A stretch of 59,283 bases of DNA from Limisphaerales bacterium (lineage in GTDB: Bacteria > Verrucomicrobiota > Verrucomicrobiia > Limisphaerales > SIBE01): the NCBI GenBank assembly GCA_044225505.1, contig JBGAIN010000030.1, positions 1 through 59,283 on the forward strand. Direction: 5' to 3'. The position numbers and the translations under genes were made by a program. Positions 914 through 59,283 of this stretch are shown here, one piece after another. Position 1 is the first letter of the stretch. Each line of letters opens with the position of its first letter. Below the pieces are notes generated by a model, which saw only the letters and a program-made list of their open reading frames with translations, was not told the origin of the DNA and made no database searches.

Positions 914-3900
914 TCAGCGAACGAGCGCACGGAAGAAGCCAGACTCCGTGGAAGGCGTGGGCAGGTTCGACCAATCGATCACGCCCCCAGTCGCACTGTT
1001 GGTAGAGATTGAATTCCAGCTGTTTAGGGCCGCGGAGCTCTGGATTTCGTAGAGCTGTTCCGCTTGTCCGTGCACCGTCAAGCGGTAACCGCCGGTCGGC
1101 AAACGAGCTAAGTCGAGTCGCGCGGGTGTGCTCTCGTCGATCGGGATGGTCAAGGGAAGATCGAGATTATCGACGAACGCAGCGTCCAAGCCAGCTTTGG
1201 TATCGAGGAAATCCTTGGAGTATCGCCATTCGAACGTATTCGTGCCGGCCGAGATAGAGAATTGGTAATTGGTCCAGCCCAGTTCCCCAGACCAGCTGGT
1301 CAGGCGTTTGCCGTTGAGATAGAAGTCCAGTTTGTCCCAGGTTGGTTCGGAACTCACTTTAACCGCAAAGGCTCCGGTCCCAGCTCGGCAGATCTCCGTG
1401 AGAAGCAACGAACTGCGCTCGCCATTCCCAATCGCCCCAGAGCGGACGGCATAGCGTCCCGCGAGGACGACATTCGTTTGCACTGTCCAAGCCGCAACAC
1501 CTGAAGAACGCCAAGGCAGGGTAGTCAAAGCACCCGTCTCAAACCCGTCCGTAAACGCGAGCGAACGAAAGTTGGGGACCAGGTCGAAATCCCCGGTAAT
1601 GGACAGGGCCAGGGGATTGTCCGTTGAACTGACGGCGCCGCTCCAATGATCAAAGGCATAGAAGGAAGCGGGCGTTGCCAGAAACGTGGTGATCTTCCCA
1701 TCTTCAAACCAGTTCGAGGCGGGAGAAACCGTTCCGCCGAACGCATCGTGGACAGTCACGAAATGAATGGTCGCTGGGCGGAAGTTGAATTCGAGCTGGA
1801 CGATGCCGGACGCGCCCCCAAAGCCATCCACGGCAATGGAGTAAGTCTCGCCAGAGCGGACGACCTGACTGATTCTGCTGAAATCGGCTGGAGCCGCAAC
1901 ATCATCATTACTGGCCACCAATTCCAGCCCTGCCATGCCCAGCCCTTTGTTTCGATACAGAGCGAGCAAGGTGTTGAAGGTTGAGTTCGCCGTGTTCAGA
2001 GTCAGCACGCCGTCCGTCCCTGGCCGGTAGCTCCACCAAACGCTCTTGCCGCCAGCATTACCGGCATGGGCTGGCTCACCGGGCTCCTTCGCTGCCCGCG
2101 TATTGTTGCCCGCAACTACGTCGTTCGTCCCCGTCAATTCGAAAGCGTTGGCCAGCATGTCATTCGGACTGATGAGCGGCTGATAGGTCACCGTCACACT
2201 TCGAGTCGGCGAGGAATTGCCGGCGTAATCGGTGGCGACGATCTTAATTCGATTCTGGCCCTCCTTCAGAAGGACATTACTCGTCCAGTTGGTCGTCCCA
2301 AGCGCGGTGCTGGCCAGTTCTCGATTTACTTGCACTTGCACCTGGCGAACCCCAGTCGTATTTGGGGCCAAATCCTCTGCCGTGCCTGTGACGACAAGCT
2401 TATTGTCAGTCGTGTTCGTGACGATCAGACCGGACGCCGGGCCCGTGATGATCACGCGAGGCGCATTGGTGTCAGGTCCACCGCCAGGCTCAACCCGCAG
2501 TCGAATCGCTCCCACGTCGGCCGCTGAAAAGCCGGCCACCGCGATATGATATTTGGTTCCAGCCTTCGCATCGAAGAGAACGTGGCCTTGTTTCTGATTT
2601 CCTGCATCATCCGCCGACGCCACTTCTTTGAGCGAGGTGAGGCTGCTATTTGTGTAAACAGCGACAAGTGTGTCGAACGAACTGCCCGCAAGGTCGACGA
2701 TCGTCCGCGCGTCCGCTGCCGGCACCCAGTTCCACCAGACCGACGCCGCGGCCGACGGTGTGCTCGCGTGCTTCGGTTCCAACGGTTCAATCGTGGCGAA
2801 ACGGTTGGTCCACAACACCGTGCCACCGGCACTGGGCAGATCTAAGGCGTCCGCAAAATTGTCGTTCAATGGCGGAGACGCAATGTTGTATCCGACCGTT
2901 TGGGTGAGTGCGGTTTTCCCAGGGGCCGTCACGGTGAAGGTAATGCCAAAAGGCCCGGGCGTCGTGGGCAACGTCAACTCGGCGCTGTAAACCTCATCCA
3001 GCGACTTAAAATCCACCCCCGTGCCATCGTTCCGAAACGTGACTTCGGACGGATTGTCTTGAACCTTCGCGGTCACAATCGCATTCGTGATCGCCGCCAG
3101 GTCCGTGACCGTCACGTAAAACGGAACGGGTCGCCGCGCGGAGAGATCACTGTTTTCCGGTGGGTCCAAGGCCAGTTCGATGGTCCCGTCGGGCATGGCG
3201 GATAGTGCCCGGAACGCGTTGACTCTTCCGCCCGTGGTCGTTCGTCCCGCCAGAGTGGGAATTGGTACCGCCGTCGTCAGCAAACGACCTCGGACTTCGG
3301 GAATCGACGCGTTGGGAAACTTGGCCAGAATCAGCGCAGCGACCCCGCTGACGTGCGGCGTCGCCATGCTCGTTCCGTCGAACGAATCATACGAACTGTC
3401 CGAGGCCGCGACACAGGAGAAGATCTCCTCGCCTGGAGCCCCGATGTGAACCGAGGTTTCGCCGTAATTCGAAAATGACGCCAAGCGATCATGTCGATCG
3501 AGCGCGGCCACCGAAATGACGTTGTCCAGTTTGTACGATGACGGATAATGCGCGAGTTCGTCGTTGTTGCTCGAGTCATTTCCAGCCGCCGCCACAAACA
3601 AAACCCCTGCTCGGCGTGCTGCGGTCAGGGAGTCGAGCAAAGCGCGTTCGAAAGGCCCCCCACCCCAGCTGGCATTGATAATCCTAGCCCCATGTTCAAC
3701 CGCGTAATCGATGCACCCAATCGCTTCGTCCGTCCCGCCGAAACCGTCCGCGGCCAGGAATTTGCAGGCCATCAGGCGGACGTTCCAGGCGACACCGACG
3801 TGCGGATTCCCATCATTCGCCGCTGCGCCGATCGTCCCGGAGACGTGGGTTCCATGGTCGTTATCGTCGAAAGGGTTCCCGTTACCCTCGGCTGTGTTTA

Positions 3901-4880: not shown

Positions 4881-7799
4881 CTATTGTGCCGAACGGACTC
4901 GGTAATAGCGCTGCGCGTGATTCCCTGTCATGGAATCCTGCACCACGGCCGTTTGCGTCGCTGAATCGGAATTCGTGTAGGTCGCCAGCGCCTTCCAGGT
5001 CGGGTTCTGGAGGTCAGTAGCGTACTCAACCTGGTAGTTGATTTGAGGTTGTGCCGGCCAGGAGAGCGCAATGCTCGTGAGGTCGTTCACCCGGAAACCT
5101 TTCAGGGTTAGCGGCGCGTCGAAATCGAGCGGATACGCATCATAGGCGTTCGCGATACCATCGCCATCGGTATCGATCACCGTGCTTTGGCGGACGATCC
5201 GTTCCATCGCCACGCTGCTTCCGCCGGAACGGACTGGCACTTGCACCACATTGTCCGGCCCGGCAAACTCGACATGCACCAATCGGCCGTTGGAAAGTTC
5301 TTCCAACTGCGCTGCGGGAATATTGGAGTCCGAGAAGTAAATCGTCAGGCTGGGATCAACCTCGAGCGCCGCGCTCAGATCTCCCGACACGACGGCATTG
5401 GTCAGTGGCCCGGTTAATTCCAGGAGATCCACATAGAGCCCGTTCTTCCCAGTCGCGCCCCGGAAGGCGTGGAGCACTTCACGGTCACCGCCGAGGACTA
5501 AGTGGCCGATCGCCACGTTATTCTCAAAGCCGGACGCGCTCGCGCCCCGGTCCTCACCCGCCCAGGAATATTCGACCCGCGCAAATCGCGGTGCCATCGA
5601 CTCAATCGTTGTCCCGAGTAAGTCTCCGAGCGCTGGCTTGATCGGCAGATCAAAACCGTCGCGCGTGCGAAACACGTTGTTCGCACCATCACCGGTGTCG
5701 GAGAGACTGTGGGTCGCGCGCAGCGTCAATTTACCCACTGATCCATTGGTCGCCGAATTAAACCGGATGTCCGTGCCCACGATGTTCAGGTCCCGCGCGG
5801 AGAAGGTGCTGCCGCCTTGGAACTGCGCGGTGGTAGCGTTGATAATGATGCCATCGACGCGAGAGGTGATCGTGCCGGAATTCTCGAAAGCCGTGCTGGC
5901 AAAGAGTAGACCGTTCGCACCAATAAACCCGAGGTTGGAGAACGTTTCGTACGGGGTCGTTCGGTCAGCGCCGAAATTCGCCACGTCCGTGACTGTCAAT
6001 GTCCCTTTGCTGGTAAACGATTTCAAATGCGGCGCAGTAGCGGCAGACCAATCTTCCTGATCCCCTTGCAGCGTCATTCGGGCATTCAGCGTGAATTTGT
6101 CCGTATCCAAGAGCAGCTTACGCACGATGGTCATCGGATCATTCACGACAACCTCTGGCGCGTGACTGATAAAGTCGTGCGTGATGACAGGCTTAGTTGC
6201 TTGCAGCCCGGTCGCATCGACAATGAGCACGTGGGTATCGATCTCTGTGACAAGATTTGTCACCACGTTCGTGAGCGTGCCCGTTCCAGACCCGTCATCG
6301 ACTTTGTTAGTGGCAAGGGTGCCGTAAAAGTTCGTCCAAACACCGCTCCAAGCGCTCAGACTGCCATTAAGACGCACCACACGTTCGCGAGCGATTCCCT
6401 GCATTTGCAGCGTGCCGGTCGGAACGGCGAGGTCGTAAGCGATGTTCTCGGAATCGAGCAAGATCCCTTGGCTGCCGATCAAGTTTGACGTGTTGATCGA
6501 GATCAACCCAGTTCCACGAACACGCGTTCGGGACATATTCAGGTTCTGCGCCACAATCTCAACGCGGCCAGGATTGTCGTTGGCGCTGGTGAGCCCAGGC
6601 ACTTGCGGAGGCTGCGAGGCCAAGCTGTCGATACGTGCCGAATAGGCCGCGTAAAAGTTGGTGACGAAAGGAATGAAATTCGTGTCTTTCGCATTGAAAA
6701 ACAATGTGTTCGTCAGTTTGCCGTTCCCTGTGGCGCCGGTTAGGAAATCGAGGGGCGGGGTGCGCGTGAGCTCGAAGGAGGCGGGAATGTAGGTGGTCGG
6801 GAAAGCTGCCAAGTTCTCGAGAAACACCTGGTTGGTCCAGGAAGCTAGCAAGTCACGCAGATAGAGCGTCGAGGATTCAATATCGCCAGTGACCGTATTG
6901 GTTTCAGGCAAGCTGATCTCGATAACGGCGGTCTTAAACGGATTCGTCAGAATGGTGCTCGGAGCCCATTTGATGGTCGCACCCAAGTTCGTATCGCTCA
7001 CAGCGACGAACGCCGCTTGCACAAGAATATTGGTAATCCGGCCGGTGTCGGGATCAGCGCCGCCAGCGTTGGTAAAGACGGATGAAACCGGGTTAACCAA
7101 TGCCAGGGAGTCGAAGCCGGGAAACCCAAAAGGCCCGTTCGTGATCAAGCTGAACGGTGAAGTCACGTTCGTGGAGGTCTTGCTGATCGAAATCAGGTTG
7201 GCAACGCCCATCACCTGGTTGGTCTCACCGCCCCAGTATTGATCGTAAATGCCAGGGTCAGGAAAGTAGTTGGTATCGCCGGCAAAATGGGTCGATGTCA
7301 CTTCGAGTCGCCCGATGCCAATACCACCCCGGCTCAGATCGACGTCCCTTCCGGTCAATCGGAGCAAGCCAGCCGCGCCTGTCACCATATACCCGTGATT
7401 GACGATCGTATCGGCCGAAACCAGCAAGTAGGACGGAGACAGAATTTGTCCGGTGAATGTGTTGGCAACGCCGCTGGCGGCGTCTGTGGCCCGGATCGAG
7501 CCGCCCGTCTCGTTGACAAAAGCGATCGCTGGCTTCGCGGCGCCCAGGTTGGTCCCGGTATCAAAACGAAACCCGGGCTGCGAGATCATCGTGCCGCGAT
7601 TCGTGAAGTACCGGGTGCTGTTAAAGTCAAACGGGAGCGTGCCGAAGACGTCGAATCGTCCGTAATTCGCGAAGGCGAGCGCATCAATCGTCGGGCTGCC
7701 GTTGACGACGCCGAAGTTCTCATAGAGCGGCGTGACTTGCGCATCGGTCACTGCGGTCAAGGCCGACGCTGCCGCAACTGCTATCAGTAAATGCTTCAT
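4881..7799 (-). CDS. Large secreted hypothetical protein (beta-rich, T/N/G-rich, DTDGDG Ca-binding motif, C-terminal sorting-like domain)
   Basis: Long ORF; signal peptide MKHLLIAVAAASALTAVTDA at ATG 7799; IDTDGDGIANAYDAYP; ends QRYYRVRSAQ. Confidence 0.85.
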   Translation of the reverse strand: MKHLLIAVAAASALTAVTDAQVTPLYENFGVVNGSPTIDALAFANYGRFDVFGTLPFDFNSTRYFTNRGTMISQPGFRFDTGTNLGAAKPAIAFVNETGGSIRATDAASGVANTFTGQILSPSYLLVSADTIVNHGYMVTGAAGLLRLTGRDVDLSRGGIGIGRLEVTSTHFAGDTNYFPDPGIYDQYWGGETNQVMGVANLISISKTSTNVTSPFSLITNGPFGFPGFDSLALVNPVSSVFTNAGGADPDTGRITNILVQAAFVAVSDTNLGATIKWAPSTILTNPFKTAVIEISLPETNTVTGDIESSTLYLRDLLASWTNQVFLENLAAFPTTYIPASFELTRTPPLDFLTGATGNGKLTNTLFFNAKDTNFIPFVTNFYAAYSARIDSLASQPPQVPGLTSANDNPGRVEIVAQNLNMSRTRVRGTGLISINTSNLIGSQGILLDSENIAYDLAVPTGTLQMQGIARERVVRLNGSLSAWSGVWTNFYGTLATNKVDDGSGTGTLTNVVTNLVTEIDTHVLIVDATGLQATKPVITHDFISHAPEVVVNDPMTIVRKLLLDTDKFTLNARMTLQGDQEDWSAATAPHLKSFTSKGTLTVTDVANFGADRTTPYETFSNLGFIGANGLLFASTAFENSGTITSRVDGIIINATTAQFQGGSTFSARDLNIVGTDIRFNSATNGSVGKLTLRATHSLSDTGDGANNVFRTRDGFDLPIKPALGDLLGTTIESMAPRFARVEYSWAGEDRGASASGFENNVAIGHLVLGGDREVLHAFRGATGKNGLYVDLLELTGPLTNAVVSGDLSAALEVDPSLTIYFSDSNIPAAQLEELSNGRLVHVEFAGPDNVVQVPVRSGGSSVAMERIVRQSTVIDTDGDGIANAYDAYPLDFDAPLTLKGFRVNDLTSIALSWPAQPQINYQVEYATDLQNPTWKALATYTNSDSATQTAVVQDSMTGNHAQRYYRVRSAQ

Positions 7800-7824
7800 A
7801 ACGGATTCTCGCAATTCACCGGGT

Positions 7825-9408
7825 CTACGGAGTGGTCGTGCCGGTTCCAGTCGTCGTTCCAGTCCCAGTGGTCGTCCCGACCGGCAGGAGGACCGAGACG
7901 CTTGGCGTCCAGACGTCAGTCAACGCACCACCGCCACTACTGCCACCAGAGCTTCCTCCACCAAGCACAAGGTCTTCAATCTGCTGGATTGTCGTGGCTG
8001 TCGGATAGACGAGAGGAGCGTTGGTCGTCCCGTCAAAGGAACCCCAACGGTATACTTGGAAAGAGTTCACTTCGCTGAGGAATGAAGGGGTCGCGTTGAA
8101 GAAGATCGGCCCGACACTGTTCAGCGTGAGGACAAACTCCGGAGCGGCGCCTGACGGCGGAATGATTCCTGGACCCCAGTGGGTGCGTGCCGCTGACAAT
8201 TCTGGAATACCGTTGGTCAACCAGTCCGAACTCTGAGTATTGAAGGCGGTAGTAATGCCGACGTCCGTATCGTTACCCTGTAGATCGCCGGCGTTAAACA
8301 TAATGTCAGGCGCGACTAACGGTCGGATAAGATTCTGCGATATCGCTCGCCCGTTCGTAATTATCCGGTCAGTAAATGAAACCGTGTTGGATTGGAAGAA
8401 ACCCACTTGCGAATCAAAGTCGAGTCGCTCAAAGCGTGGAATTTTTCCTAACCCGGGGCGGAGCGCGGTCGTGACGAAATTTGTCGCGCTGGAAACCGTT
8501 CCACCGGTGGTTGTTCCTGTGGGTGGAGTCACCACTGGGAACGACCAAGGTGAGTCGTTCCCGCCCGAAGTCACAACCCCTAACCCCGCTCTCAGAGCCG
8601 AGGGAGCTGGTTGTTCGACATTAAAGTTGTCACTTCGGTAAACGTATTTTAACCCGCCTACATCATCGCGCGTCAACCCCGTCCAGAAACCACCGAATTG
8701 CAGAAGTCCGTTAAACCACCCGGATGTCACCGGCGCGTTGATGAGTCCTTGCAGTGCCAGTGGATCAACCGTCTCATTAGCGGTTAGCGTGGTAGGGACG
8801 TCCTGGCTGTCGATAATGTAAGTATAGGTCCAAAGCTGGCCATTGATAAATGAACTTGGCTCCCAGGTTATAGGGTCGAAGTTGCGCTTAATGATGTGAT
8901 AGTTGGTCGTCGTATTGATGATGTATCGATTGCGAACGGTAAAAACGTAGCGAGTCGGATCGGTGATTCCCAGGGCATGCAGCAGAAACGAGAGAGTATA
9001 AGACTTCACGTCCAACAAATTGAGCGCTTGGGCCTGGTAGTTCATCCGTTGCGCGCTAAGCGGGAATTCATCCAATTTGGCCGAGTCCATCGTCGGAAGA
9101 CTGTTTAGGATCGCAATCGCTTTTTCAATTTCATCGATCCCGCGTTGCCCGAAGTAATCCTTGAACTGAGGCGAATAAGCGTAGTAGATCGTTGGCACGT
9201 TCCAACGAAACTCGTCGCCTAGATTCATCGGGCCACCCCCTGCGCCGTTCGCGCCTCCACCGGTCTCGGGAGAAGGGTTCGGCAACCCATAGCCAATTGA
9301 GACCGTCATCCAGTCGGCAGTCGGTCCCAACAGCGTAAACGCTCGCGTGTTGGAGGCGCCAGCGCAGGCAACGAATACCAGAACAACTGCTTTAATAAAA
9401 CGCCACAT
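7825..9408 (-). CDS. Secreted hypothetical protein with degenerate matrixin (M10)-like features and a Thr/Gly tail
   Basis: Signal peptide; FRWNVPTIYY, LLHALGITD and LTRDDVGGLKYVY resemble matrixin elements, but there is no HExxH; ends GTTTGTGTTTGTGTTTP. Confidence 0.75.
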   Translation of the reverse strand: MWRFIKAVVLVFVACAGASNTRAFTLLGPTADWMTVSIGYGLPNPSPETGGGANGAGGGPMNLGDEFRWNVPTIYYAYSPQFKDYFGQRGIDEIEKAIAILNSLPTMDSAKLDEFPLSAQRMNYQAQALNLLDVKSYTLSFLLHALGITDPTRYVFTVRNRYIINTTTNYHIIKRNFDPITWEPSSFINGQLWTYTYIIDSQDVPTTLTANETVDPLALQGLINAPVTSGWFNGLLQFGGFWTGLTRDDVGGLKYVYRSDNFNVEQPAPSALRAGLGVVTSGGNDSPWSFPVVTPPTGTTTGGTVSSATNFVTTALRPGLGKIPRFERLDFDSQVGFFQSNTVSFTDRIITNGRAISQNLIRPLVAPDIMFNAGDLQGNDTDVGITTAFNTQSSDWLTNGIPELSAARTHWGPGIIPPSGAAPEFVLTLNSVGPIFFNATPSFLSEVNSFQVYRWGSFDGTTNAPLVYPTATTIQQIEDLVLGGGSSGGSSGGGALTDVWTPSVSVLLPVGTTTGTGTTTGTGTTTP

Positions 9409-9411: not shown

Positions 9412-11355
9412 TCATCGCAATCGAATTACACGGTATAGGGCTACGTCCTGGTCGCCTCCCACCGGGATGGAATCGACCGTGCCGGCCGCGAACCGGGCAG
9501 TGCCAACGTTCGTCCATGCTTTCGCCTCTGCGGCTTGCTGGACTTGATAAAGGAATCCAGGCTGAGTGTTCCATTCCAACCGCCAGCCCTGTTCAGCTGA
9601 AGAAACCAACCGGGTTCGAAGGACGCTGGCGCTATCTTGCGGGTTTGTCCCAGCCAGGAACTCCTCAATATTCGAAGCTCCGTCTCCGTCGGTATCTTCC
9701 TTCGCCGATTTCCAATTGGACGCGTCGGCTCCCCAGTAAAGCGCTTGCCAATCGTCGGGCAGACCATCGAAATTCTCATCCTCACCCCAGGTTTTGCCGG
9801 AGACTGGGTCCGAAAGCGGGGATCGTCGGCCATCGGAGAGTTGATAGGCCAACCGGATCGAGTGAGTGCTCCCTGCGGTCAAGCCTGTTGCAGTCCATTG
9901 GTTCCCTTCAACCAAGACCGGACTTGTCGATTGATCGAGATAAATCTCGTATTTTACACCGGTGAATCCCGCCAGGTCCGGCCAGGTAACACTCAGTTTG
10001 CTTTGGCTAAGGGCTGCGATCGACGGTGCGGCTGGCAAGGCCAAGTCCTCGGCAACGGAGTAGCGTTGAGCAAAAAGATCGAAGCTGGTGCGCAGGCCCG
10101 TAAAACTAGACCAGGTCACGATAAAGTCACGGTTCCCGTTGGAAGTGACCGTTGGGTGAATTTGCTGACTAGCCGTTGTGGTGTTCACTCGGAATTCAGG
10201 GCTGCCCGATTCGGCAGAGCTCGTGAAGAATCGCGCGATCACCCCTTCACGCGATCCGTCTTGACCTAAACTTGTCCAGACGACTAGGTGGAGACCATTT
10301 ACCGAGCTGGTTTTGGGCAAATACTGGTCGCCGAAAGTATAGGTGTTGATCTTGATATCGGTGCGGACCGGAGCGCCGTTATTTCGGAAGGCTCGGCCGT
10401 AGATATCCCAGCCGTCTTTTTGCTGTTGGATAGCTGTAATCTTGTTCGGTTTTCCACTCCAAACTGCGAAGAAACCGTCGGTCGACGCGCTCAAGGATGG
10501 ATTGGCGCAAACCGTCGCATCGCTGTTTAGCTTGAATTCATCCGTCACTGGCGAACCGTTCGGAGCGTAAATTCGTCCAAAGGTATCAATGTCAAATAGC
10601 TCTACACCCGATGTAGGATCGGTCGAGACTCCTGTTGGATCAGTATTTTGGGCAATCCCTTTGAACTTCTCCGAGACCCAGGCCACGACAACGTTTCCGT
10701 TGGCGAGAGCTGTCACCGCCGGGTTGCGCTGGTTCAGCAGGGTCGTCTGATTCACGAGAAACTCTGCGCCGACTTTGCCGCCGTCCGCGGAGAACCGTTG
10801 GCCGTAAACGCCGAGCATGGAACCATCCTGACCAGAGCTCGCCCAAACGATCAGCGCATTGCCGTCGGGCAACGCCGTCACTGCGGGAGTCAGTTGTTGT
10901 TCGGCGGAATAATCACTCACTGCGACGTCGCCCGTGACGAAGGTGCCATCGGCTTTAACGAAACGAGCGAAGACCTTGGTCTTCGTTGACACGGTGCTCT
11001 GCCAGGTGAATACCGCGCCTCCTCCCGTCAGCACAGCTGCGCGAGGCATCATTTGATCTCCGGCGCCATTTTCGTTGACTCGGAATACCCCTAAGGACCC
11101 CGACAGATTCCGGTTCAGTCGTCGTGCACTAATCCCGTAACCATCGCCGTCCGTGGCGTTGTCGTGCCAAACGACGTATCCGCCCAAAGGGTTGATCGCT
11201 GTGTCCGGAAACACTTGGTCGCCTTGGAGCGCACCAATCACCGGGTATTCGCCGCCTTCGGCTTGAAACTTGACCTGGCCCCAAGCAAGACAGGAAAACG
11301 CGCCGAGACTAGCCAGGACACCCAGCCTTTTGCAGGCGCTTACGAGTGAGGACAT
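9412..11355 (-). CDS. Secreted protein with seven ~55-65 aa repeats (probable beta-propeller), FN3 domain, Ca-binding DxDxDG motifs and C-terminal domain
   Basis: Repeats of type EFxVNxxTxxxQxxPxV...VxW...YGxRF; FN3-like LSVTW...YEIY...TGLTAGSTH; DTDGDGASNIEEFLAGTNP. Start moved to ATG 11355, which precedes a signal peptide. Confidence 0.85.
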   Translation of the reverse strand: MSSLVSACKRLGVLASLGAFSCLAWGQVKFQAEGGEYPVIGALQGDQVFPDTAINPLGGYVVWHDNATDGDGYGISARRLNRNLSGSLGVFRVNENGAGDQMMPRAAVLTGGGAVFTWQSTVSTKTKVFARFVKADGTFVTGDVAVSDYSAEQQLTPAVTALPDGNALIVWASSGQDGSMLGVYGQRFSADGGKVGAEFLVNQTTLLNQRNPAVTALANGNVVVAWVSEKFKGIAQNTDPTGVSTDPTSGVELFDIDTFGRIYAPNGSPVTDEFKLNSDATVCANPSLSASTDGFFAVWSGKPNKITAIQQQKDGWDIYGRAFRNNGAPVRTDIKINTYTFGDQYLPKTSSVNGLHLVVWTSLGQDGSREGVIARFFTSSAESGSPEFRVNTTTASQQIHPTVTSNGNRDFIVTWSSFTGLRTSFDLFAQRYSVAEDLALPAAPSIAALSQSKLSVTWPDLAGFTGVKYEIYLDQSTSPVLVEGNQWTATGLTAGSTHSIRLAYQLSDGRRSPLSDPVSGKTWGEDENFDGLPDDWQALYWGADASNWKSAKEDTDGDGASNIEEFLAGTNPQDSASVLRTRLVSSAEQGWRLEWNTQPGFLYQVQQAAEAKAWTNVGTARFAAGTVDSIPVGGDQDVALYRVIRLR

Positions 11356-14455: not shown

Positions 14456-15286
14456 TCACTTAGCGGAGGCGGTAGCGCTGCTGGCATTGGACTTAATCAC
14501 CGTTCGTTTTTTGGTTGAGTCTGCGGACAATACAACTTCGTTTCGCGTTATGGCAACGATTTTGTACAACTCAGGATCGTCTTCCAACTTGATCTGGTCG
14601 TTCACACGCTTGTTATTCAACTGTTTATTCGCAGGCACATAGACCAAATCCGCGGCATATCCGACCACACGCGAATAGGGCTTTTCCTTCGTCAAAGTCA
14701 CCGGGACGAAATCTTCCTTCAACTTAATGACCAACGCTGTGGGTTCATTCGTCGCGCCCTGCACGTTGAGCAACTCGAACAGGTCGTTTCTGGGTGTCGC
14801 CGTGCTGATCGTCCGCGTGTTCGGACGCGGATTATGCTCGGTCTCACGCCGAATTGTCACCTGATATTTTACCGGCTCGCCCGGATTGCCTGCCACCACC
14901 GCGTCAAACGAGGCGGTCAAGGAGAGCTCCCGGATCTGCACGATCTTGAGGGCGCCCGGCCCGATCTCCGAGCCTGTCCGAACGGGAATGAGCCCCCCGT
15001 TCGGGAGCTTTTTCCAGGGCACAGGATTGAAAAGGTTATGCGTCCCGGAGAAGTCCAGGTTAAGCGGATGTTCGATACGCGCCAGAACGGTCTTGTTGGT
15101 CATCAGCCAATCGTCGAGCGGTTTAAACGGCTTTGCCTTGACCTTGACCGTCAAGTTGCGGCTGATCTCCTCCAGCCGATCGCGTTCATGGGAGACCTGC
15201 CATGGGAGCGCCGCTGCGGCCGCGGCCAACCCGAGCAACACAATGCTCAGCAGGACCTTCTCGTAGTGCTTTTTCAGAAACTGCAT
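14456..15286 (-). CDS. Pilus/T2SS-like accessory protein (Amuc_1099-like)
   Basis: N-terminal KKHYEK plus a TM helix, HNLFNP, C-terminal YKIVAITRNEVVL; lies between the PilO-like gene and the secretin. Confidence 0.7.
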   Translation of the reverse strand: MQFLKKHYEKVLLSIVLLGLAAAAAALPWQVSHERDRLEEISRNLTVKVKAKPFKPLDDWLMTNKTVLARIEHPLNLDFSGTHNLFNPVPWKKLPNGGLIPVRTGSEIGPGALKIVQIRELSLTASFDAVVAGNPGEPVKYQVTIRRETEHNPRPNTRTISTATPRNDLFELLNVQGATNEPTALVIKLKEDFVPVTLTKEKPYSRVVGYAADLVYVPANKQLNNKRVNDQIKLEDDPELYKIVAITRNEVVLSADSTKKRTVIKSNASSATASAK

Positions 15287-15293
15287 GCTGAGT

Positions 15294-16391
15294 CTATTGG
15301 GCGGCGGCGGTGGCGGTTGAGGAATCAGCCGCGGCAGCAGCGGCCGCGGGAGCGGCTGCGGCAGGTGCGGCGGCCGCTGTCGGTTTAAGCTTTACCGCTT
15401 GAATCGAGAGCGTGAAGCGGAGCGGTTTCTCGTCGAGGATCGTGGTCGGCCCGCGTGGCGCCGCAGGGCGAACGGCCACGGGCGCTTGCGGCATCACAGG
15501 CATAGGACGGGCCCCACGTCCGTAGCGACCGCCTCCCATACCGCCGTAGCGTTGCATGAGCGCTTCTCGAGCCGCGTCTTGCCCTGGCGCAGCGGCTTGC
15601 GGCCGCATCATCCCGTAGCGGCTGTAAACGTCCGTGCTTTGGCTGTTCTCATCGGTTGGCGAACTCGCTGTTGCCGCCGGTTCAACCACGATGTTGGTCA
15701 CCATGAAACACTGCGGCAGCTTCGCCAGACCTTCCAGAACAGCCGCCAGTTCGGAACTGAATCCTTGGAACGCCACTTCATATGGCATGGTGACAGACCA
15801 GCTGTTCGTGACGGGTTTGGCGTTCAGGTAATCCTGCCCGCCCGTCGCGTCGTCCAGCTTATCGATCGGCGACCGTTTCAGCCAGACCAACGAATTGACT
15901 TTGGCATCGAACAACACTCCGCACACCGTGCGAATGTCAGCCAGTTGCGTCGCCAGCGGCGGCAAGGTGGAGGGCGTGAAGGTCATCGCCCCTTTTTGCG
16001 CCGCGAAGGTGAACCAGTAATTGGTCGGCACCTCAACTCCGGCCCGCTGCGCATCGACCAGGAGCAACGCGCGCGTGTTGTCCAGGTAAGTGCGGAATTG
16101 CATGTTCCCTAACTCCTGAGGCAAAGGCGCCGGTTCGAAATGCTTTTCCACTTCGGTCAGAAAATTCTGCAACCGTTTCCCTTCATCTTTGGCTGCACTG
16201 ATGTTCTCTGGATTTGGATAGGGATCCCTTTTGGCGAGGGCCTCGAGTTTTTGCGTTGCCGCATTCAACTCTTCCGTGACCCCTTGGTCCTGCTGAATCT
16301 TGGTGTAGAGGTAGAAGCCAGCAATGCCCAGCAAGGCCAAGGCGACCACGCCCCCGACTACCAAGAACAAATTGCGCTTGATCCACTGCAT
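15294..16391 (-). CDS. Amuc_1100-like / PilO-GspM-like alignment-complex protein
   Basis: N-terminal TM helix, coiled coil, PYPNPENI, YWFTF, MPYEVAFQGFSSELAAVLEGL (ferredoxin-like PilO pattern); directly follows pilM. Confidence 0.8.
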   Translation of the reverse strand: MQWIKRNLFLVVGGVVALALLGIAGFYLYTKIQQDQGVTEELNAATQKLEALAKRDPYPNPENISAAKDEGKRLQNFLTEVEKHFEPAPLPQELGNMQFRTYLDNTRALLLVDAQRAGVEVPTNYWFTFAAQKGAMTFTPSTLPPLATQLADIRTVCGVLFDAKVNSLVWLKRSPIDKLDDATGGQDYLNAKPVTNSWSVTMPYEVAFQGFSSELAAVLEGLAKLPQCFMVTNIVVEPAATASSPTDENSQSTDVYSRYGMMRPQAAAPGQDAAREALMQRYGGMGGGRYGRGARPMPVMPQAPVAVRPAAPRGPTTILDEKPLRFTLSIQAVKLKPTAAAAPAAAAPAAAAAAADSSTATAAAQ

Positions 16392-16392
16392 A

Positions 16393-49988: not shown

Positions 49989-52130
49989 CTACTGGGTAAC
50001 CACGCGGAAAAACCGCTGCGCTGCGGTGCTGGACGGCGACGTGGCCAGGAAGCTTCCATTCTCGGTCCCAGGTTGCACCGTCGCTGCCTCATCGACAGTC
50101 CACGGTCCGGCCGGATCGAGGGCGGATTGGATCTGGTAGCTGGCGTTGTTGGAATTCGTCACGCTAAATCCAATCTGGAGCCCCCCGTTCGTTGGGCGCC
50201 GCACAGAAGTAATCCGCAAAACCGGCGTCGTGCTGATTTGGGCGACCACCGTCTTGCCCGGGCCCCAGGGCAGCAATCGATCGAGAATGCGCGGCCGAAC
50301 ACTCAACTCAAACGTTCCAATCTCGCTCGGTTGGAATGGAAAGGAAGGCGTGGCGGGAATTTCGGCGACGACTTCGTCGGCGATGCGGTCGCCGTTAAAG
50401 ACGGCAATCTCGTCGATGTGAAAGCCAACGGCCGCATCGGTCTGGCTGAAGAACGTGCCCCCTAAGTAGTCGTAAACAAACCGAACGTTAATCTCCTGCC
50501 CTGCAAGATTGCCCAACGGAATCAACTGATTATTGAAGCTGCTATCCCCGACGTTGCCCGTTCCCACTTGGGTCCAAACGTCCTGCCAATTGAGTCCGGT
50601 ATTGACGCTGATCTGCGCGCGCGCCACCTGGTCGGAAGCAGCCCAACTCAAGCGGCTGGCGAATCGTAATTGCGTGTCGGATCGGACGCGGAAAGTCCCA
50701 TTCAGCTGCAGGTATTGATCTTCTGGAGCGGAGTTCGTTCCACCAGGCCGGGGATGCGCCAAGTGAAATGAATTTTGACCCGCAGCACGCACCACATTAT
50801 CGATCACGGCGTATCCAGGAGTGGTTTGAGCGGTGACACCGGCCAACCCAGCTTCGGCACCTTCACTGCCAGTGACGGGAATCAAACGGTTCGAACGCCA
50901 CTGGTAGCGAGTCGCTCCGCCAACGACAGGGAATGTGTAGGTATTGTCCTGGCCCACGGCCGGACGATCAGGCCCGGAAAGCACCGGAGGTGAGTAGGAC
51001 AAAACGTGGTCCAATTTCACGTTGTCATTGGTTACCGAAAGAGGCGAAGTAACGTCGGCCAGGCCGGGCACTTGGACTGTCACCGAGTAACTGCCGGGTC
51101 CAGGCACCGGCACGGAATAACCACCGGAGTTCGCGCTCACTCCATAAAACGTAGACCCTGGCACCACCACGCGCACTCCGCCAACTCCCTCACCCAGATC
51201 GTATTGGCTGTTCCCGTTCAAGTCATAATACACCACGCCAGTGACAAACGGGCTGAGCCCCTGCCGATTCCCAAAGTCCTGTGTGACCAACTGCGGCCCC
51301 ACCGGGGCCTCATCCGACGGAGGCACCGGACTCTTGGTTCCGGTCACGATCCCAATTCCAATCTCACGGAAAGTCGCGTCATGGATATTCAATCGATGGC
51401 CGGGTGGGTTTTGCATCCCGCCAACCGAGGAAGGAGCGTTACCCCAATCCACTTCAAAGCCAGCGTGACCATGTTCGACCGACTGCGCATACGCGAAGAC
51501 ATTCTCTCCAATATTGATCCAAGAATATCCTTCGTCCGTGGCACGTTCGGCGAACCCGCGGCCATCAGAGCCGTTGTGCGCCTGAAAAACATGGTCTAGC
51601 ATATCCTGACTGTGCAACCGGGCCGCCGTCGTCAGCAGCGGATTGAAAGAAAGGGGCGGAGCGGCGGGCAACGAGGCGATAGCGTTCGCCATAAGATCCA
51701 AATCCACGGAGAACATGTCGAAGTTCAGGACCAAGTCCGCGTCCTGGCTGGATTTCAAGCGGGCTCCTTCAGCGGCAGGGTTGCGACGTGCTCGATTGAT
51801 GTATTCGAGATAGAGCTGTTCCAAATCGGTCGGTGAACCGATCGTATACGGACTTGTTCCGGTCGGGACGGCCATTCGCTGGACAAAAGCCCGACTCGAC
51901 GGCTGGCGGGTCAACGCTGGTACCGATGGGGGCGGCGCTGGCGTGCGATCGGGAGTGTCCAGCTCCGGGACGGCCAGTGATGACGCCAAGGTCAAACCCA
52001 AGGCAAAGCCAGACACCGCGCGCCACCGACACAAGCACGCCAAACTTCGTCCCGCGAGACGATTCCTGGGGAAAGACTTCTCGGACTTCGTGGACTGGCC
52101 CATCGGGAATTGGGTAAGGCTTATCATCAC
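49989..52130 (-). CDS. Secreted CAP/SCP-domain protein with Ig-like and C-terminal domains
   Basis: EQLYLEYINRARRNP, ARLHSQDM, GENV, PGHRLNI, EIGIG, VTQDFG, GVVYYDLNGN; ends QRFFRVVTQ. Start uncertain. Confidence 0.88.
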   Translation of the reverse strand: MMISLTQFPMGQSTKSEKSFPRNRLAGRSLACLCRWRAVSGFALGLTLASSLAVPELDTPDRTPAPPPSVPALTRQPSSRAFVQRMAVPTGTSPYTIGSPTDLEQLYLEYINRARRNPAAEGARLKSSQDADLVLNFDMFSVDLDLMANAIASLPAAPPLSFNPLLTTAARLHSQDMLDHVFQAHNGSDGRGFAERATDEGYSWINIGENVFAYAQSVEHGHAGFEVDWGNAPSSVGGMQNPPGHRLNIHDATFREIGIGIVTGTKSPVPPSDEAPVGPQLVTQDFGNRQGLSPFVTGVVYYDLNGNSQYDLGEGVGGVRVVVPGSTFYGVSANSGGYSVPVPGPGSYSVTVQVPGLADVTSPLSVTNDNVKLDHVLSYSPPVLSGPDRPAVGQDNTYTFPVVGGATRYQWRSNRLIPVTGSEGAEAGLAGVTAQTTPGYAVIDNVVRAAGQNSFHLAHPRPGGTNSAPEDQYLQLNGTFRVRSDTQLRFASRLSWAASDQVARAQISVNTGLNWQDVWTQVGTGNVGDSSFNNQLIPLGNLAGQEINVRFVYDYLGGTFFSQTDAAVGFHIDEIAVFNGDRIADEVVAEIPATPSFPFQPSEIGTFELSVRPRILDRLLPWGPGKTVVAQISTTPVLRITSVRRPTNGGLQIGFSVTNSNNASYQIQSALDPAGPWTVDEAATVQPGTENGSFLATSPSSTAAQRFFRVVTQ

Positions 52131-52381: not shown

Positions 52382-55090
52382 TCACGGGCCCGTGTTTTGG
52401 CGGCGCACTTGGTAAAACTCCGCGCCACGCTCCGCAGCAGGCACAACATACTCGGTGACCGGGAAATGGCCTGGAACTGTCGGACCGGATTGAAAACCGC
52501 TGCCCAAAAGGCCGGTCGATTCAAGTCCGTATGACTCCCCGTCCAGGCCGGGCCAGCTCAATCGCAGGTAGCCTGGAGCGAGTTCCGTCAAATCAATCCC
52601 GAATAGAGCGGCCGGTGCCGTTGGATCCATCCCAATCGCCTGCTCGCGCGCGTTATTGAATCCGTCATGATCCGGATCGTCCTGCGGGCCTTGGTCCAGG
52701 TTGCCAAACCACTTCATTTCCCAGTAGTCATCGAGACCGTCCGCATCGCGGTCAGTGATTTTCACCCCTTGCAATATCAGTTCCGCGTAAGTGACCGACC
52801 CGGTCGCAGCGCGCGTTCCCGAAGGGAATGTGCGCAAGGTGGTATTCCGCTCGTCGCTAACCTCCAGTCGCCATTCGCCGGCGCTGCTTTCGTAGAAATG
52901 TTGTGCAGTCCAGTAGGTCCAGTCGACCGGACCTCGGGTGGTGTCAGCGTTGATCGACTGCAAGACCGAACGGGTGCCCATGGGCGAGACCAGCGTCACA
53001 CGCACGTCCGCCCGTTGAGTGTGGGTCGTCTTCAGACGCACCCCGATATGTTCGCAAATGAGGGTCTCGCTGATCGGAATACGATAGACCGCCGGAGTGA
53101 GCCGAATCATCCCGGTAGTCTCCGGGTGCGCACTGATGAAATCGCGCAGGGCTTGACCGTCACTTAACCCGATACTGACCGCTGGAATGGGGACAAAGGT
53201 CGTGCCACCCAGCGCCTGAATCTGATTCGTGCCTTGGTTATTGTAGATGATAGCAAAGGCCGCCCCAGCCCGCGCGGCTCGCTCAATTTTCTCTACAAAT
53301 AGACTTTGGCCCCGCTCGATCAGAGCTCCTTTCCCATGCAAATCGACCGTGATCTCTTCGTTGGCCATGCCAACATCAACGAGAGGCAAGGCCTGAGTGG
53401 GCGTGTCCGCGTGGGGTCCGAGACTCGGCAGGCAACGGATGGCCGTGAAGCGAACTGGAATATCGGGTGCTGCGCAGACCACACGCAACGCATCATCGGG
53501 AATGTCTTGCCGCACGGTGTTGGTGGCATGCACGACTTCCAGGGGTGGGTGATTGGACCACGCCTTGGCCAGTCGCACCGCCAAGCCCGCGTCTGGAACG
53601 CCGTAGCCTACGTTATGGCTGACCCACAAGCCCGCACCGTTCCGACGTAGATCCGGGTCCGAAACGTCATAGTGGTGAGCACTCTGCAGCAGGATCTGCT
53701 GCACGTCTCGGTATCCGAGATCGGGATTCGCACTGAGGATCAGCGCTGCGACGCCCGCCACTTGGGGACTGCTGGCCGACGTGCCGTCAAAGAAGGCATA
53801 GTTTCCCTCGTCGCCACTGGTCGTATTGTATCCGTCGCTGCCAGTGCGGTCAGTGGTAAGAACGTCTGGCGCATCGGGATCTGTGGCATCGGCCTGACCA
53901 TCCCCATTGGTATCCAGCACGTCGCCGCTCGGAGCCGCGACCAGTAAACAGGCGCCTGGGCTGCTATAACTGGTGGCACGCCCGTCCTTGCGCACAGCCG
54001 CGACCGCGATCGCGCGGGGATCGGTCGCATAACCGTCGTCGTTCGCGTTGATCAGCTCTTCGCGTTCATTGCCAGCCGCACGGACCAGCACCACGCCCAG
54101 CCCGTGCCGGCCGCGGTTGACGGCATTCTCAATGCCTGCATTGGAAAGCGCATCGATCGGAGAAAAACTGGTGCTGGTACTTCCCCAGCTGTGATTCTGC
54201 ACAGACACACGGTTGGATGCGGATTGAAACATGTTCATCAACTGTTCATCGGTCACGAAGCTCTCCACACCCCGAAACGATGTCCCGAAAATGACCCAAC
54301 TCGCCAAGCGCGCTGCCGGAGCTACACCAGCCACCCCGACCTGGTTGTCCACAGAAGCCGCAATTAGCCCGGCGACACAGGTAGCGTGATTGGCATCGCT
54401 CGACGCGGGTCCACCGTTCGCCCGACTCCGATAAAAGTTGTAGCTGACAGACGCATCCGCTCGTTCGGAAAGCTCCGGATGATCGAGTTGAAATCCGTCG
54501 TCGGCCACGGCGACGAGCACGTTTTCTCCTCGCGTCAAAGGCCAGGCTGCGCGCACGTTAAGATCTGGGCCAGCCCGTTTCCAATCCGGGCCACGGTTCT
54601 CGAGATGCCACTGTTGCGGAAAGAGTGGGTCGTCCGGCAACGGACCGTAGCGATCATGTTTCTTGAACGGGCGACGCATCATCGGGTAACTCGCCAAAAC
54701 GCCCTCCATGGCGGCCAACTCCGACGCCAGCTGAATTGCGGCAAAACTGTCTTTCGCCTGCAGTATGAACAAATCAGCGCTCACCGCCCGCACGAGCGTC
54801 AACGCCCGTCCTGCGAGATAGTTCTGAAGCGTCTGCCCGGCGTCAATTTGAAGCACGACGCGGCTCCCGAGATCCACCGTTTGCGTTGTCCCTTCCAACG
54901 TTGCTTGAGTCCAGGACTCCTCCCCCAGAGAGGCGGAGGTGAGCTGAGCCGCAGGTGACAGGACCTCTTTTGCAACCGAATATTCCCTGGGAATTGGCTC
55001 GCGAAAGGTGAACTGGACCGTGTCGTTCGTCTGAGCACGCACACCTGCGGCCAGCAGAAGCATTAAGCTACAGCAAATCCATCTGTCCAT
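52382..55090 (-). CDS. Secreted kexin/furin-like S8 protease with PA and P (proprotein convertase) domains
   Basis: DPLFPQQWHL, VAVADDG, HATCVAG, AAGN, GTSASSPQVAG, YRDVQQIL, SHNVGYG; PA-like GALIERG...AIIYNN; P-domain TLVSPMGT...GEWRLEVSD. Confidence 0.92.
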   Translation of the reverse strand: MDRWICCSLMLLLAAGVRAQTNDTVQFTFREPIPREYSVAKEVLSPAAQLTSASLGEESWTQATLEGTTQTVDLGSRVVLQIDAGQTLQNYLAGRALTLVRAVSADLFILQAKDSFAAIQLASELAAMEGVLASYPMMRRPFKKHDRYGPLPDDPLFPQQWHLENRGPDWKRAGPDLNVRAAWPLTRGENVLVAVADDGFQLDHPELSERADASVSYNFYRSRANGGPASSDANHATCVAGLIAASVDNQVGVAGVAPAARLASWVIFGTSFRGVESFVTDEQLMNMFQSASNRVSVQNHSWGSTSTSFSPIDALSNAGIENAVNRGRHGLGVVLVRAAGNEREELINANDDGYATDPRAIAVAAVRKDGRATSYSSPGACLLVAAPSGDVLDTNGDGQADATDPDAPDVLTTDRTGSDGYNTTSGDEGNYAFFDGTSASSPQVAGVAALILSANPDLGYRDVQQILLQSAHHYDVSDPDLRRNGAGLWVSHNVGYGVPDAGLAVRLAKAWSNHPPLEVVHATNTVRQDIPDDALRVVCAAPDIPVRFTAIRCLPSLGPHADTPTQALPLVDVGMANEEITVDLHGKGALIERGQSLFVEKIERAARAGAAFAIIYNNQGTNQIQALGGTTFVPIPAVSIGLSDGQALRDFISAHPETTGMIRLTPAVYRIPISETLICEHIGVRLKTTHTQRADVRVTLVSPMGTRSVLQSINADTTRGPVDWTYWTAQHFYESSAGEWRLEVSDERNTTLRTFPSGTRAATGSVTYAELILQGVKITDRDADGLDDYWEMKWFGNLDQGPQDDPDHDGFNNAREQAIGMDPTAPAALFGIDLTELAPGYLRLSWPGLDGESYGLESTGLLGSGFQSGPTVPGHFPVTEYVVPAAERGAEFYQVRRQNTGP

Positions 55091-56982: not shown

Positions 56983-59283
56983 CTATGGAATAACGACTTG
57001 ATAAAACCAGACCGCACTCGTGGGCAACGCCACCTCGAACCTTACTGTGCTGGTCGCCGTGGTCTGCGTGGCGACAGTCTGCCATGCGGCAGCCGTGAGC
57101 GCCTCCGTGGCACGGAGTTGATACGTCCCCGGTTTCGAGACTTGATACTCCACCACGAGTGTATTTGCTTCCCGTCGCATCGCCAGGAAGACCGGGATCA
57201 CCAAAGTGACTTCCGCAGCCGTGCCGAGGATCTCTTCTCCTGCTCCATTGGCCGCGGCGATCGTGACTTTGCGGAGGTTCGTCGAGGCCGCAAAGGACGT
57301 TGTCCAGGTTTTCGTCGACGTCCAAGTGACGGGAACCGATTGGCCGTTGACCAACAGCGAAGCCATGTTCAGCGGCCCGGTGCCACTTAAAGTTACGGGA
57401 TCGTCTCCTTCAACCGACGTAATGCCAAATGAAGCCGTCTCCTTCGTCACTTGCGCGAGAATATAATTCCTTGCCGACGTCACCCAAGTCTTGATCGGAT
57501 CAGGAGAAGCCGCGGTGACGCCGTGCTCTTGGAACGCAGCATACTTGGCATCGAGAATTGGGGTCAGAAGTGCCGTTTGCATCGGTCCGTTCACGAGGTT
57601 GTAATAGGCCGTCAACAAGCGACGTTTAAAACCGCCTTGGGAGAACCAGCGCGTGAAGGTGGGATCTCCCGTCGTAAAGAGCGGGAGATTCGAAGGCCCG
57701 TCCGACCCGCTATTCCCCAGGACGATATTCGCATCCCAAATAATTAATTCCCACCGCGCTTGGCTCGGCTTGTACGAATAGGTGTTCTGTGCGTTGCGAT
57801 ATCCAATACTATCCCAATTTCCCAGGGCGTGATTGACAGCGAAGAATCGCATCCATTCATCCACGTCGACCAATTGTTCGATGTTTTCCTCGTAAGCCGG
57901 ATTCGCGTAGTCGGTCGCCACGGTGACAAACTTCAAGACGTTGCTGTAATTGTTGGCGGTGGAATTCGCGCCGCGAGTCAGCCAGTTCCAACGGTACCGA
58001 GCCAGCTTCAGTTCGTTGCTGGTGGTTGTAAACCGGCTGATTGTGACAAACGTGCTGCTCTGCATGTTGAGGCTTTGCGTCACGGCGTCAGGAAATTCAA
58101 ACCACGGTTGCATTTTAAACAGATCGCCGTCCGCATCCTCCGGCCAGAACTCTTTCACCAAATCGTCGCTGCCGACTTGCGTATCTTCCATCAAGGACTG
58201 CTTCTTGGATCCGTTGACATAGAAATGAATGAACCGGCGATGCAACCATGGGTTTCCCGACTTCCTCGCCAGCCAATACGCGATCTGTTCGCGTTGCAGT
58301 GTCGTATCGTCGAACGCGCCATTACCGGGAGCGTGAAGCTTGTTCAAACCCGATGCCCCAAGCACCCGATCATCCTTCGGCAGATCAATCGTGAAATGGG
58401 CGCTACTGGCCGGACCACTGGTAAACTGCTGGTGGTAAGGGCTGCCCGCGAATCGACCGCCGGCATTGTAAATTGCCCGTGAATTGCCGTAGACAAACGT
58501 ACTCTCGATCGGCTCGTTGCTCAGCACAGGCCGGGTTTTCCACACGTCGGAGTTCGCTTGCGTAACCCAGAGACGATAAACACCAAAAGCGCCGCTCGGT
58601 GTGCCGTCACCAAACCGTAACAAACACTCGCGACCAAAGCCTGGGGGGTAAACAATGCTAACAGGCGTCGTGGCCCGGTCGCGCGCTTCAATCGTGAAGG
58701 CGACCAATGCGGTTCCGCCAGGCGCCGGAATCGTCGCGGAGAACAAACCATCCCCCGGGACGGCGTCCCCATCGCGCCCGAGATCATTCATCGGCACGGT
58801 CAGGACCGTCGTTGCCGGATCGATCCGATAACGGAGAGTCACCGCTGCGATCCCGTCCGGATCATCGACCTGCGCAGTCACTATCACAGGTTCGTCAATT
58901 GCAGGAACGACCGGGAAATGCTGCACTTCACCAAAGTTTGGTCCGGCGTTGGCCAGCGTCCGTGTATTCTTGCCGCCGGGCGTCCCAGGCGTCCGGGGCA
59001 CAAGCAAACGGCCATAGGCTTCCAGACCGTTGCCATGGAGACGCAAAAGCACTTCCGGCCATCCCCGAAGCCATTTGACCTTGGCGCGCAGGGTGGCGGT
59101 ATTCCCATTCGTCAATGCCGCCGAGAGTTTGACAAAAACCTTGTTGGCGCCGGTATCTCCATTACCACTGGCACGCAAGTGAAGTGATTGTTGACTCTCG
59201 AAGCCATCGCTGGTTTCGAGGGTGCTCCGAATGTGATTGCCTGAAACTGTCCAGCCTGACAGACCCTGTTCGAAAGTACTGTT
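56983..59283 (-). CDS. CotH-kinase-family secreted multidomain protein, 5' end outside the window
   Basis: Frame stays open to the window edge (NSTFEQGLSGW...); LQREQIAYWL, GDLFK, VDVDEWMRFFA, NWDS...NTYSY, IIWDAN; MNDLGRDGDAVPGDGLFSA; ends WFYQVVIP. Confidence 0.85.
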   Translation of the reverse strand, partial: NSTFEQGLSGWTVSGNHIRSTLETSDGFESQQSLHLRASGNGDTGANKVFVKLSAALTNGNTATLRAKVKWLRGWPEVLLRLHGNGLEAYGRLLVPRTPGTPGGKNTRTLANAGPNFGEVQHFPVVPAIDEPVIVTAQVDDPDGIAAVTLRYRIDPATTVLTVPMNDLGRDGDAVPGDGLFSATIPAPGGTALVAFTIEARDRATTPVSIVYPPGFGRECLLRFGDGTPSGAFGVYRLWVTQANSDVWKTRPVLSNEPIESTFVYGNSRAIYNAGGRFAGSPYHQQFTSGPASSAHFTIDLPKDDRVLGASGLNKLHAPGNGAFDDTTLQREQIAYWLARKSGNPWLHRRFIHFYVNGSKKQSLMEDTQVGSDDLVKEFWPEDADGDLFKMQPWFEFPDAVTQSLNMQSSTFVTISRFTTTSNELKLARYRWNWLTRGANSTANNYSNVLKFVTVATDYANPAYEENIEQLVDVDEWMRFFAVNHALGNWDSIGYRNAQNTYSYKPSQARWELIIWDANIVLGNSGSDGPSNLPLFTTGDPTFTRWFSQGGFKRRLLTAYYNLVNGPMQTALLTPILDAKYAAFQEHGVTAASPDPIKTWVTSARNYILAQVTKETASFGITSVEGDDPVTLSGTGPLNMASLLVNGQSVPVTWTSTKTWTTSFAASTNLRKVTIAAANGAGEEILGTAAEVTLVIPVFLAMRREANTLVVEYQVSKPGTYQLRATEALTAAAWQTVATQTTATSTVRFEVALPTSAVWFYQVVIP

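Follow-up and report, generated by a model that had tools for sequence, protein, structure and literature searches.

A shared fibronectin-like domain at the ends of unrelated exported proteins of a Limisphaerales bacterium, a candidate docking tag

Why should seven proteins with different cores, encoded on one stretch of bacterial DNA, all end in the same pattern of some 70 residues? The question is raised by contig JBGAIN010000030.1 (C78 in our numbering; 59,283 nucleotides, analysed over its whole length and here called the window) of a Limisphaerales bacterium of the phylum Verrucomicrobiota (assembly GCA_044225505.1), whose genome is a 9.04-Mb draft of 342 contigs that is 95% complete. An original prediction, made from the letters of the window, held that the seven are secreted proteins sharing a strictly C-terminal domain, and that this domain addresses them to an export or surface-anchoring pathway. 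The seven tails are homologous and belong to a large family of small fibronectin-like domains, hereafter the tag, which we tentatively read as a docking tag for exported proteins.

Seven tails and their family

All seven tag domains lie on the minus strand of the window, and all seven open reading frames (ORFs) end as had been described. The subtilase (ORF 914-4585, with a Peptidase_S8 core) carries its tag at 917..1147 (profile E-value 2.0e-25; the tail runs ...GFFRALVR and then stops), and a 977-aa protein without any Pfam or NCBIfam match (ORF 4881-7814) carries it at 4887..5132 (E 1.7e-26; ...RYYRVRSAQ, then stop). The protein encoded directly downstream of a secretin gene (ORF 9412-11532) has the tag at 9418..9645 (E 5.4e-28), just behind a TSP3-like repeat, which is all that the Pfam and NCBIfam scan recognised in its core. 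The remaining four are a matrixin-like (M10) protein (ORF 24733-26559; tag at 24739..24978, E 6.1e-29), a protein with a CAP domain (ORF 49989-52130; tag at 49992..50231, E 5.3e-21), a protease that combines S8, PA and P domains (ORF 52382-55090; tag at 52397..52627, E 1.4e-24, the most divergent of the seven) and a protein with a CotH domain, whose ORF is open at the window end (56983-59283; tag at 56986..57222, E 1.4e-25) and which also shows a weak match to choice-of-anchor X. The cores are mutually unrelated in the same scan. A signal-peptide-like N-terminus was seen by eye in all six carriers with an intact 5' end; for the 9412 protein this holds only if the chain is taken to begin at an internal Met, which is residue 60 of the longest ORF, so that its likely start lies near position 11358. 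The view of a module shared by otherwise unrelated secreted proteins was thus borne out. No other ORF of the window matches the profile, and the GH51 enzymes and the cytoplasmic proteins of the window therefore lack the tag, as had been stated.

The homology of the seven tails was tested by leaving each in turn out of the profile, which then scored the omitted tail with E-values of 1.3e-8, 7.6e-7, 7.5e-9, 4.7e-8, 4.5e-4, 0.071 and 1.5e-4 (in window order); the value of 0.071 belongs to the tail of the 52382 protease, which a 29-sequence profile matches at E 3.4e-15. Against the 30,842 six-frame ORFs of the genome, to which number the E-values are scaled, the seven-tail profile matched 87 ORFs and, after four iterations, 274 domains on 266 ORFs; reversed and shuffled controls gave 0 matches in either case. 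A separate whole-genome search with the seven tails yielded 93 matches among the best 150 scored candidates. The 266 ORFs correspond to about 3.5% of a rough gene call of 7,669.

The end motif [FY][FY]R[VLIAT] offers a view of the family that is independent of the rest of the domain. It falls within the last 13 residues of 216 of 10,314 ORFs, compared with 11-13 in control windows. Among these 216, 39 fall outside the profile family, and about 30 of the 39 bear a shorter variant of some 50 residues, so the family is larger than 266. This short tail, missed by the profile, follows the pattern ..W..G.L(E/Q).A....GPWT.V....SP.......KF(F/Y)R(L/A)K and then stops (examples are C329:1683-4454, C184:8965-14697 and C30:77258-80692); we take it for a probable compact form of the tag.

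The seven tails match no Pfam or NCBIfam family, even at E-values up to 10, in agreement with the earlier remark that no named family was recognised. A literature search turned up no description of the domain, although one may exist elsewhere. In public data the family is abundant: among 1.84 billion representative proteins, the profile matched 50,182 clusters at E up to 0.001, of which some are cross-matches to canonical fibronectin type III (FN3) domains, and 3,557 at 1e-10. The nearest ESM Atlas clusters and the named matches all belong to the Verrucomicrobiota.

A fibronectin-like fold without its last strand

The domain measures about 66-75 residues. An AlphaFold2 model of the tail of the 24733 protein, built on an alignment of 29 sequences, is all beta (pLDDT 90.6), and both fold searches were led by FN3 domains (Foldseek E 0.03-0.3, TM 0.5-0.6; VIA Z 6-7.4). 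As these are common FN3-type matches only, with Z under 8, they show the fold class and no function. The consensus strands are A, B (with a Trp), C (Tyr-x-Leu-Glu), C' (Trp, 88%), E and F (Arg-Phe-Tyr-Arg-Leu/Val), with W36, F62, Y63, R64, L13, Y23 and L31 as the best-conserved positions. The strand order A-B-C-C'-E-F, the Trp of strand B, the Tyr of strand C and the Tyr-bearing strand F are all shared with FN3 (PF00041, including the bacterial structure PDB 3mpc), and the modelled fold of strands A to F is FN3-like, FN3 core residues included.

The likeness ends with strand F. Whereas FN3 domains continue into a strand G, the chain of the tag ends 3-4 residues past strand F (in 132 of 213 tails, as measured from the F-strand motif "RFYRV" to the stop codon), and the domain folds without a strand G in cis. 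The tail model aligns to residues 3-78 of the 96-residue chain 3mpc_B. In the arrays of public proteins the short type has a median period of 78 aa (10th-90th percentile 72-86), compared with 92 (87-97) for PF00041 arrays. Moreover, PF00041 matched none of the seven tails at E up to 10 and none of 60 genome carriers at E up to 1e-5. The short period and the missing PF00041 match together identify the tag as a distant fibronectin-III relative without strand G. The family profile does cross-match genuine PF00041 arrays; the short-type arrays P0001, P0005 and P0010 have no fn3 match, whereas P0016, P0041 and P0067 have one. Tandem copies are connected by low-complexity linkers. A strand G supplied in cis behind the N-terminal copies was considered and ruled out, as the segments that follow the FYR motif in 20 copies are mutually unrelated.

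Several further features mark the tag. The tags are mildly basic on average (+0.85 per 66 aa, 59% net positive); for the carrier cores, which are acidic, the corresponding figures are -2.25 per 66 aa and 2.5%. Of 217 C-terminal carriers, 28 have a TSP3-like calcium-binding motif in front of the tag. The tails hold no hydrophobic helix, unlike the sortase-type tails PEP-CTERM and LPXTG. The final residue is Pro in 109 of 222 C-terminal copies, compared with 11% of 4,736 other ORFs.

One explanation is a sturdy FN3-like module that would have no partner at all and would cap the chain, as a protection against exopeptidases, as an aid to folding or solubility, or as a removable pro-domain. The fold and the fact that the conserved residues are mostly core residues fit this explanation, as does the final Pro of 49% of the C-terminal copies, which would be expected to resist carboxypeptidases. 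There is also a precedent: the secreted cellobiosidase CbsA of Xanthomonas oryzae is reported to have a C-terminal FnIII domain that aids export across the inner membrane via SecB and is absent from the secreted enzyme (PMC9190976). The tag resembles that domain, which matters for export and not for catalysis, in being fibronectin-like and in closing a secreted enzyme. It differs in that CbsA is one protein with a full FnIII and a SecB route, whereas here a strand-short family sits on hundreds of proteins. What a cap does not explain is why full-length FN3 arrays of 92-aa period, unlike the short type of 78 aa, are not found at the C-terminus, nor why several copies should be stacked at the end of one chain. 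We regard a passive cap as possible, though rather unlikely.

Placement, carriers and the exchange of tails

The position of the tag in its carriers is strongly biased. At most 15 residues separate the domain from the stop codon in 222 of the 274 copies, and at most 5 in 197 of these. In public data the same bias is apparent: of the best 150 public proteins, a sample biased to multi-copy proteins, 149 have a domain match, and for 118 of these no more than 15 residues follow the last copy (70 of the 118 end in Pro). The 40 matches of a word-based search likewise all stop no more than 11 residues short of the C-terminus; among them is a protein listed at NCBI as "choice-of-anchor tandem repeat GloVer-containing protein". 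The best matches in 11 other genomes end, without exception, 0-4 residues before the stop. The tag is thus nearly always terminal, where full-length FN3 arrays are not. Nevertheless, 43 carrier ORFs lack a C-terminal copy, and 32 of these have the domain directly behind a signal-peptide-like segment, beginning no further than about 110 residues into the ORF. Truly internal or tandem copies number only about ten in the genome; in public short-type arrays up to ten copies were counted in one protein. With 32 copies behind a signal peptide, and with tandem arrays in existence, the tag is not an obligate C-terminal signal: the predicted preference for the extreme C-terminus stands, its strictness does not.

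For a census of the cores, 40 C-terminal carriers drawn at random and 20 N-terminal carriers were scanned. The cores include FG-GAP, CotH plus LTD, Ig, TIG, PQQ propellers, S8 and M4, and furthermore PhoD, SpoIID, beta-helix, LVIVD and C5-epimerase. Among the N-terminal carriers are FGE-sulfatase-like enzymes, lipases, DUF3160 and Spondin_N. In none of the 60 does a Pfam match fall on the tag, and the pre-peptidase C-terminal domain PF04151 is found neither in these nor in the seven carriers of the window. Export signals were recognised by eye in 35 of the 39 assessable C-terminal carriers, one of the 35 having a prepilin-like N-terminus and the fortieth being cut by a contig end. Other means of attachment to the cell rarely coincide with the tag: a lipobox is present in 4 of 266 carriers, and none of the 20 PEP-CTERM-like ORFs of the genome bears the tag.

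Some individual carriers deserve mention. The tagged ORF C60:45277-46383 (locus L065) begins with a leader-like N-terminus of the prepilin type (GFT...LL) and not with a classical signal peptide. Four loci (L078, L084, L086 and L073) encode three paralogous FGE-sulfatase-like (SUMF1-type) enzymes and a PPDK_N ATP-grasp-type protein, all with an N-terminal tag behind the signal peptide. The metagenomic proteins P0167, P0186 and P0189 resemble multihaem cytochromes (PF14537, PF14522 and related) and have the tag at their end.

Since many carriers are hydrolases, one could suppose that the tag binds a polymer in the environment and brings enzymes to their substrate, in the way of carbohydrate-binding modules, for which a terminal position and tandem copies are likewise common. 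No match to a family of such modules was found, however, and the GH51 enzymes of the window lack the tag. In addition, the cores span proteases, CotH kinases, CAP, PhoD and SpoIID proteins, multihaem cytochromes and adhesin-like giants, which makes one shared substrate unlikely. We consider substrate binding very improbable.

The placement is better compared with SLH domains and dockerins. These are non-covalent anchoring modules that sit at either terminus, often in several copies, on many unrelated enzymes. The tag shares with them its occurrence at either end of secreted proteins, its multiple copies and its unrelated carriers, although there is no kinship in sequence or fold, and the partners of SLH domains and dockerins (a cell-wall polymer and cohesin, respectively) are known. 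Placement at either end makes the tag resemble such docking modules and sets it apart from a signal that is threaded, and arrays at the C-terminus fit a binding that is strengthened by several copies.

A further indication comes from relatives of the window. Two of 15 secretin loci from the same order (in genomes G322 and G323) encode orthologues of the 9412 and 4881 proteins in which another shared C-terminal domain, about 130 aa long, takes the place of the tag (G322 L105:9416-9805 and L105:3289-3678; G323 L108:6516-6905). Its pattern is ...G.F.G.F..P.TG..V.F.G.LLQ.Q..G.G.F....G.V...P followed by the stop, and it matches nothing in Pfam or NCBIfam. Proteins that end in it number 4 in G322, 8 in G323 and 4 in G316; there are none in the genome under study or its congener. 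The fibronectin-like tag is still present in G322 (76 matches) and G323 (41 matches). Orthologues thus swap shared tails, an exchange that may be likened to the swaps of sorting signals in proteins of other phyla.

The choice-of-anchor domains of NCBIfam point in the same direction. Proteins with such domains are described in other bacteria as surface proteins that are attached by tails of the LPXTG, PEP-CTERM or T9SS (type IX secretion system) kind (bioRxiv 10.1101/2023.03.06.531300). Six of the 40 random C-terminal carriers have a choice-of-anchor domain above the cut-off (types X, Z, Q, D, B and Q). Conversely, the genome has 16 proteins with choice-of-anchor D, Q or X, and the tag closes 9 of them, opens 1 and is absent from 6; of these six, one runs off a contig end and another begins at one. 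Neither this preference for the tag nor the exchange of tails between orthologues is explained by a passive cap.

The tag thus fills the slot in which choice-of-anchor proteins of other phyla bear a T9SS tail. It also resembles the C-terminal domains of the T9SS (TIGR04183 type A, TIGR04131 type B) as a small beta-sandwich that ends many unrelated proteins with signal peptides, hundreds per genome. Unlike them, it can stand in tandem or at the start of the mature protein, and its last strand is absent. Neither TIGR04183 nor TIGR04131 matched the seven window carriers (E up to 0.01) or the 40 random carriers (1e-6). The T9SS tail models gave no match in the whole genome, but the control likewise gave none; similarly, SprA (TIGR04189) has 0 matches in the genome, and also 0 in 14 control genomes.

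On this basis our preferred, though tentative, reading, to which we give somewhat less than even odds, is that the tag is a modular, non-covalent docking tag that would hold Sec-exported proteins at the cell surface or on a shared scaffold. The carrier would leave the cytoplasm via Sec, with its signal peptide at the N-terminus. The self-folding, strand-short tag would then act after export, from either end of the chain, by binding one common partner, which would keep enzymes and adhesins attached to the cell surface or to a common scaffold outside the cell; several copies would bind more strongly. That the tag binds anything, which partner that would be and where the carriers would end up, we infer from the placement, the tandem arrays, the exchange of tails, the choice-of-anchor slot, the scarce overlap with lipoboxes and PEP-CTERM tails, the export signals, the contrast in charge and the conserved end.

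Several points weigh against docking. Our analysis found no binding partner, and since the best-conserved positions are largely the usual FN3 core, no ligand site stands out. Promiscuous domains tend toward the termini simply through gene recombination. The choice-of-anchor sample is small. Finally, the export signals were counted by eye, and scripted signal-peptide heuristics were unspecific (53% versus 33%, and 81% of carriers versus 52% of the background) and separated carriers poorly.

The secretin operon and the reach of the tag

Three of the seven carriers (9412, 4881 and the subtilase at 914) lie downstream of a secretin gene and on its strand, as had been noted before. This gene (11596..14415, minus strand) encodes an Amuc_1098-like secretin of the PilQ type (NF042912, E 1.3e-112, below the curated cut-off). 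The three genes upstream of it (14456..18300, minus strand) encode a PilM-like protein of the Amuc_1101 family (NF045709, E 7.2e-151), an Amuc_1100-like protein (NF038287, E 5.3e-22) and, at 14456-15286, an unnamed product without family match. Together the four form a PilMNOPQ-like operon, whose matches, with the nearest ESM Atlas clusters, agree in pointing to the Verrucomicrobiota. Between the 4881 and 9412 carriers lies an untagged member (7825..9408, minus strand), of 527 aa and without family, which has a Gly/Ser- and Gly/Thr-rich tail.

Orthologues of the secretin are present in 23 of 25 relatives. We compared 15 secretin loci from 14 genomes of the same order with 20 loci from 13 other families. 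In the former the downstream genes are well kept on the same strand: the orthologue of 9412 and that of 7825 in 15 of 15, that of 4881 in 14 and the subtilase in 11, with the tag detected in 13 of the 15 loci. In the latter, carriers follow the secretin in 0 of 20 (there is one weak internal match), and this includes several families in which the tag is abundant. The three carriers are thus an order-specific extension of the operon, and their conservation is no evidence that the secretin serves all 266 carriers.

The operon nonetheless suggests a different role: the folded tag would be recognised in the periplasm by an outer-membrane translocon, either the Amuc_1098/PilQ-type secretin or a type II system, and would so serve as a ticket for export. 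This is the original idea with N-terminal copies allowed. Type II systems export folded proteins, so the position of the tag in the chain need not matter. Besides the conserved synteny, the signal peptides of the carriers speak for such a route, and so does the share of tagged ORFs, which is of a scale comparable to that of T9SS cargo. Nevertheless, the secretin is nearly universal in a phylum in which the tag is not. In a sample of 301 genomes, with at most 18 candidates scored per genome (a ceiling that many genomes reached), the profile of the seven window tails matched 113 and the 29-sequence profile 132; an Amuc_1098-type secretin is present in 285. With the first and then the second profile, the tag is scarce in genus g6 (0 of 22, then 6 of 22 with single weak matches), in family f20 (0 of 48, then 2 of 48) and in family f27 (0 of 21, then 2 of 21), whereas the secretin is found in 22 of 22 (mostly above the curated cut-off), 47 of 48 and 21 of 21, respectively. 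Co-variation of the tag with the secretin at the level of the phylum is thereby rejected; of the predicted co-occurrence with the Amuc_1098-1101 cluster, what remains is the synteny within the order.

In addition to the absence of carriers behind the secretin in other families, the arrangement of the genome argues against an export ticket, as carriers are not clustered above random (for 115 of the 266 the next carrier is no more than 10 kb away, compared with 102 +/- 10 at random), even though the window is the densest 59-kb span of carriers in the genome. Moreover, enzymes with signal peptides, such as the two GH51 proteins, do without the tag, and tandem arrays would not be expected. Recognition of the tag by a translocon is therefore unlikely in our view. 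Of the proposed C-terminally addressed export or surface anchoring, the shared terminal module of exported proteins persists, while the strict C-terminus and the phylum-level link to the secretin do not; the role itself is what we infer, and docking is the form of it that we prefer.

Two other gene groups of the window may be recorded. An exopolysaccharide gene set (18439-24099, minus strand) adjoins the pilus-like operon and comprises a sugar dehydratase/epimerase, a polyprenyl glycosylphosphotransferase, a GT4 glycosyltransferase and a protein with a weak EpsI/exosortase-associated match; short PEP-CTERM-like proteins number about 20 in the genome. At 44779-48170 (minus strand) an SNF2-type helicase gives matches to DISARM DrmD models that fall short of the cut-offs (E 1e-61). 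Its gene overlaps the end of an unnamed gene of 335 aa, with which it may form a defence-related pair.

The Verrucomicrobiota are major degraders of polysaccharides, and we know of no mechanism by which they place their many secreted enzymes. Carried further, the docking proposal would extend to an address-tag system of the whole phylum, in which a receptor at the outer membrane or the surface would capture the open edge of the tag, perhaps by strand complementation. Hundreds of enzymes, adhesins and cytochromes per cell might then be displayed without T9SS, sortases or lipid anchors, and the second tail of about 130 aa could be an alternative tag of the same logic. So wide a system is a speculative, and on present evidence improbable, extension.

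No curated model names the tag, which is found on some 3.5% of the ORFs of this genome in a rough gene call and on tens of thousands of public protein clusters, some FN3 cross-matches included. If the tag does direct docking or export, a class of surface proteins would become predictable from sequence, and the tag would imply a new receptor or pathway and could be used as a handle for display in engineering these bacteria. Even if it is passive, a curated model would improve the annotation of thousands of hypothetical proteins.

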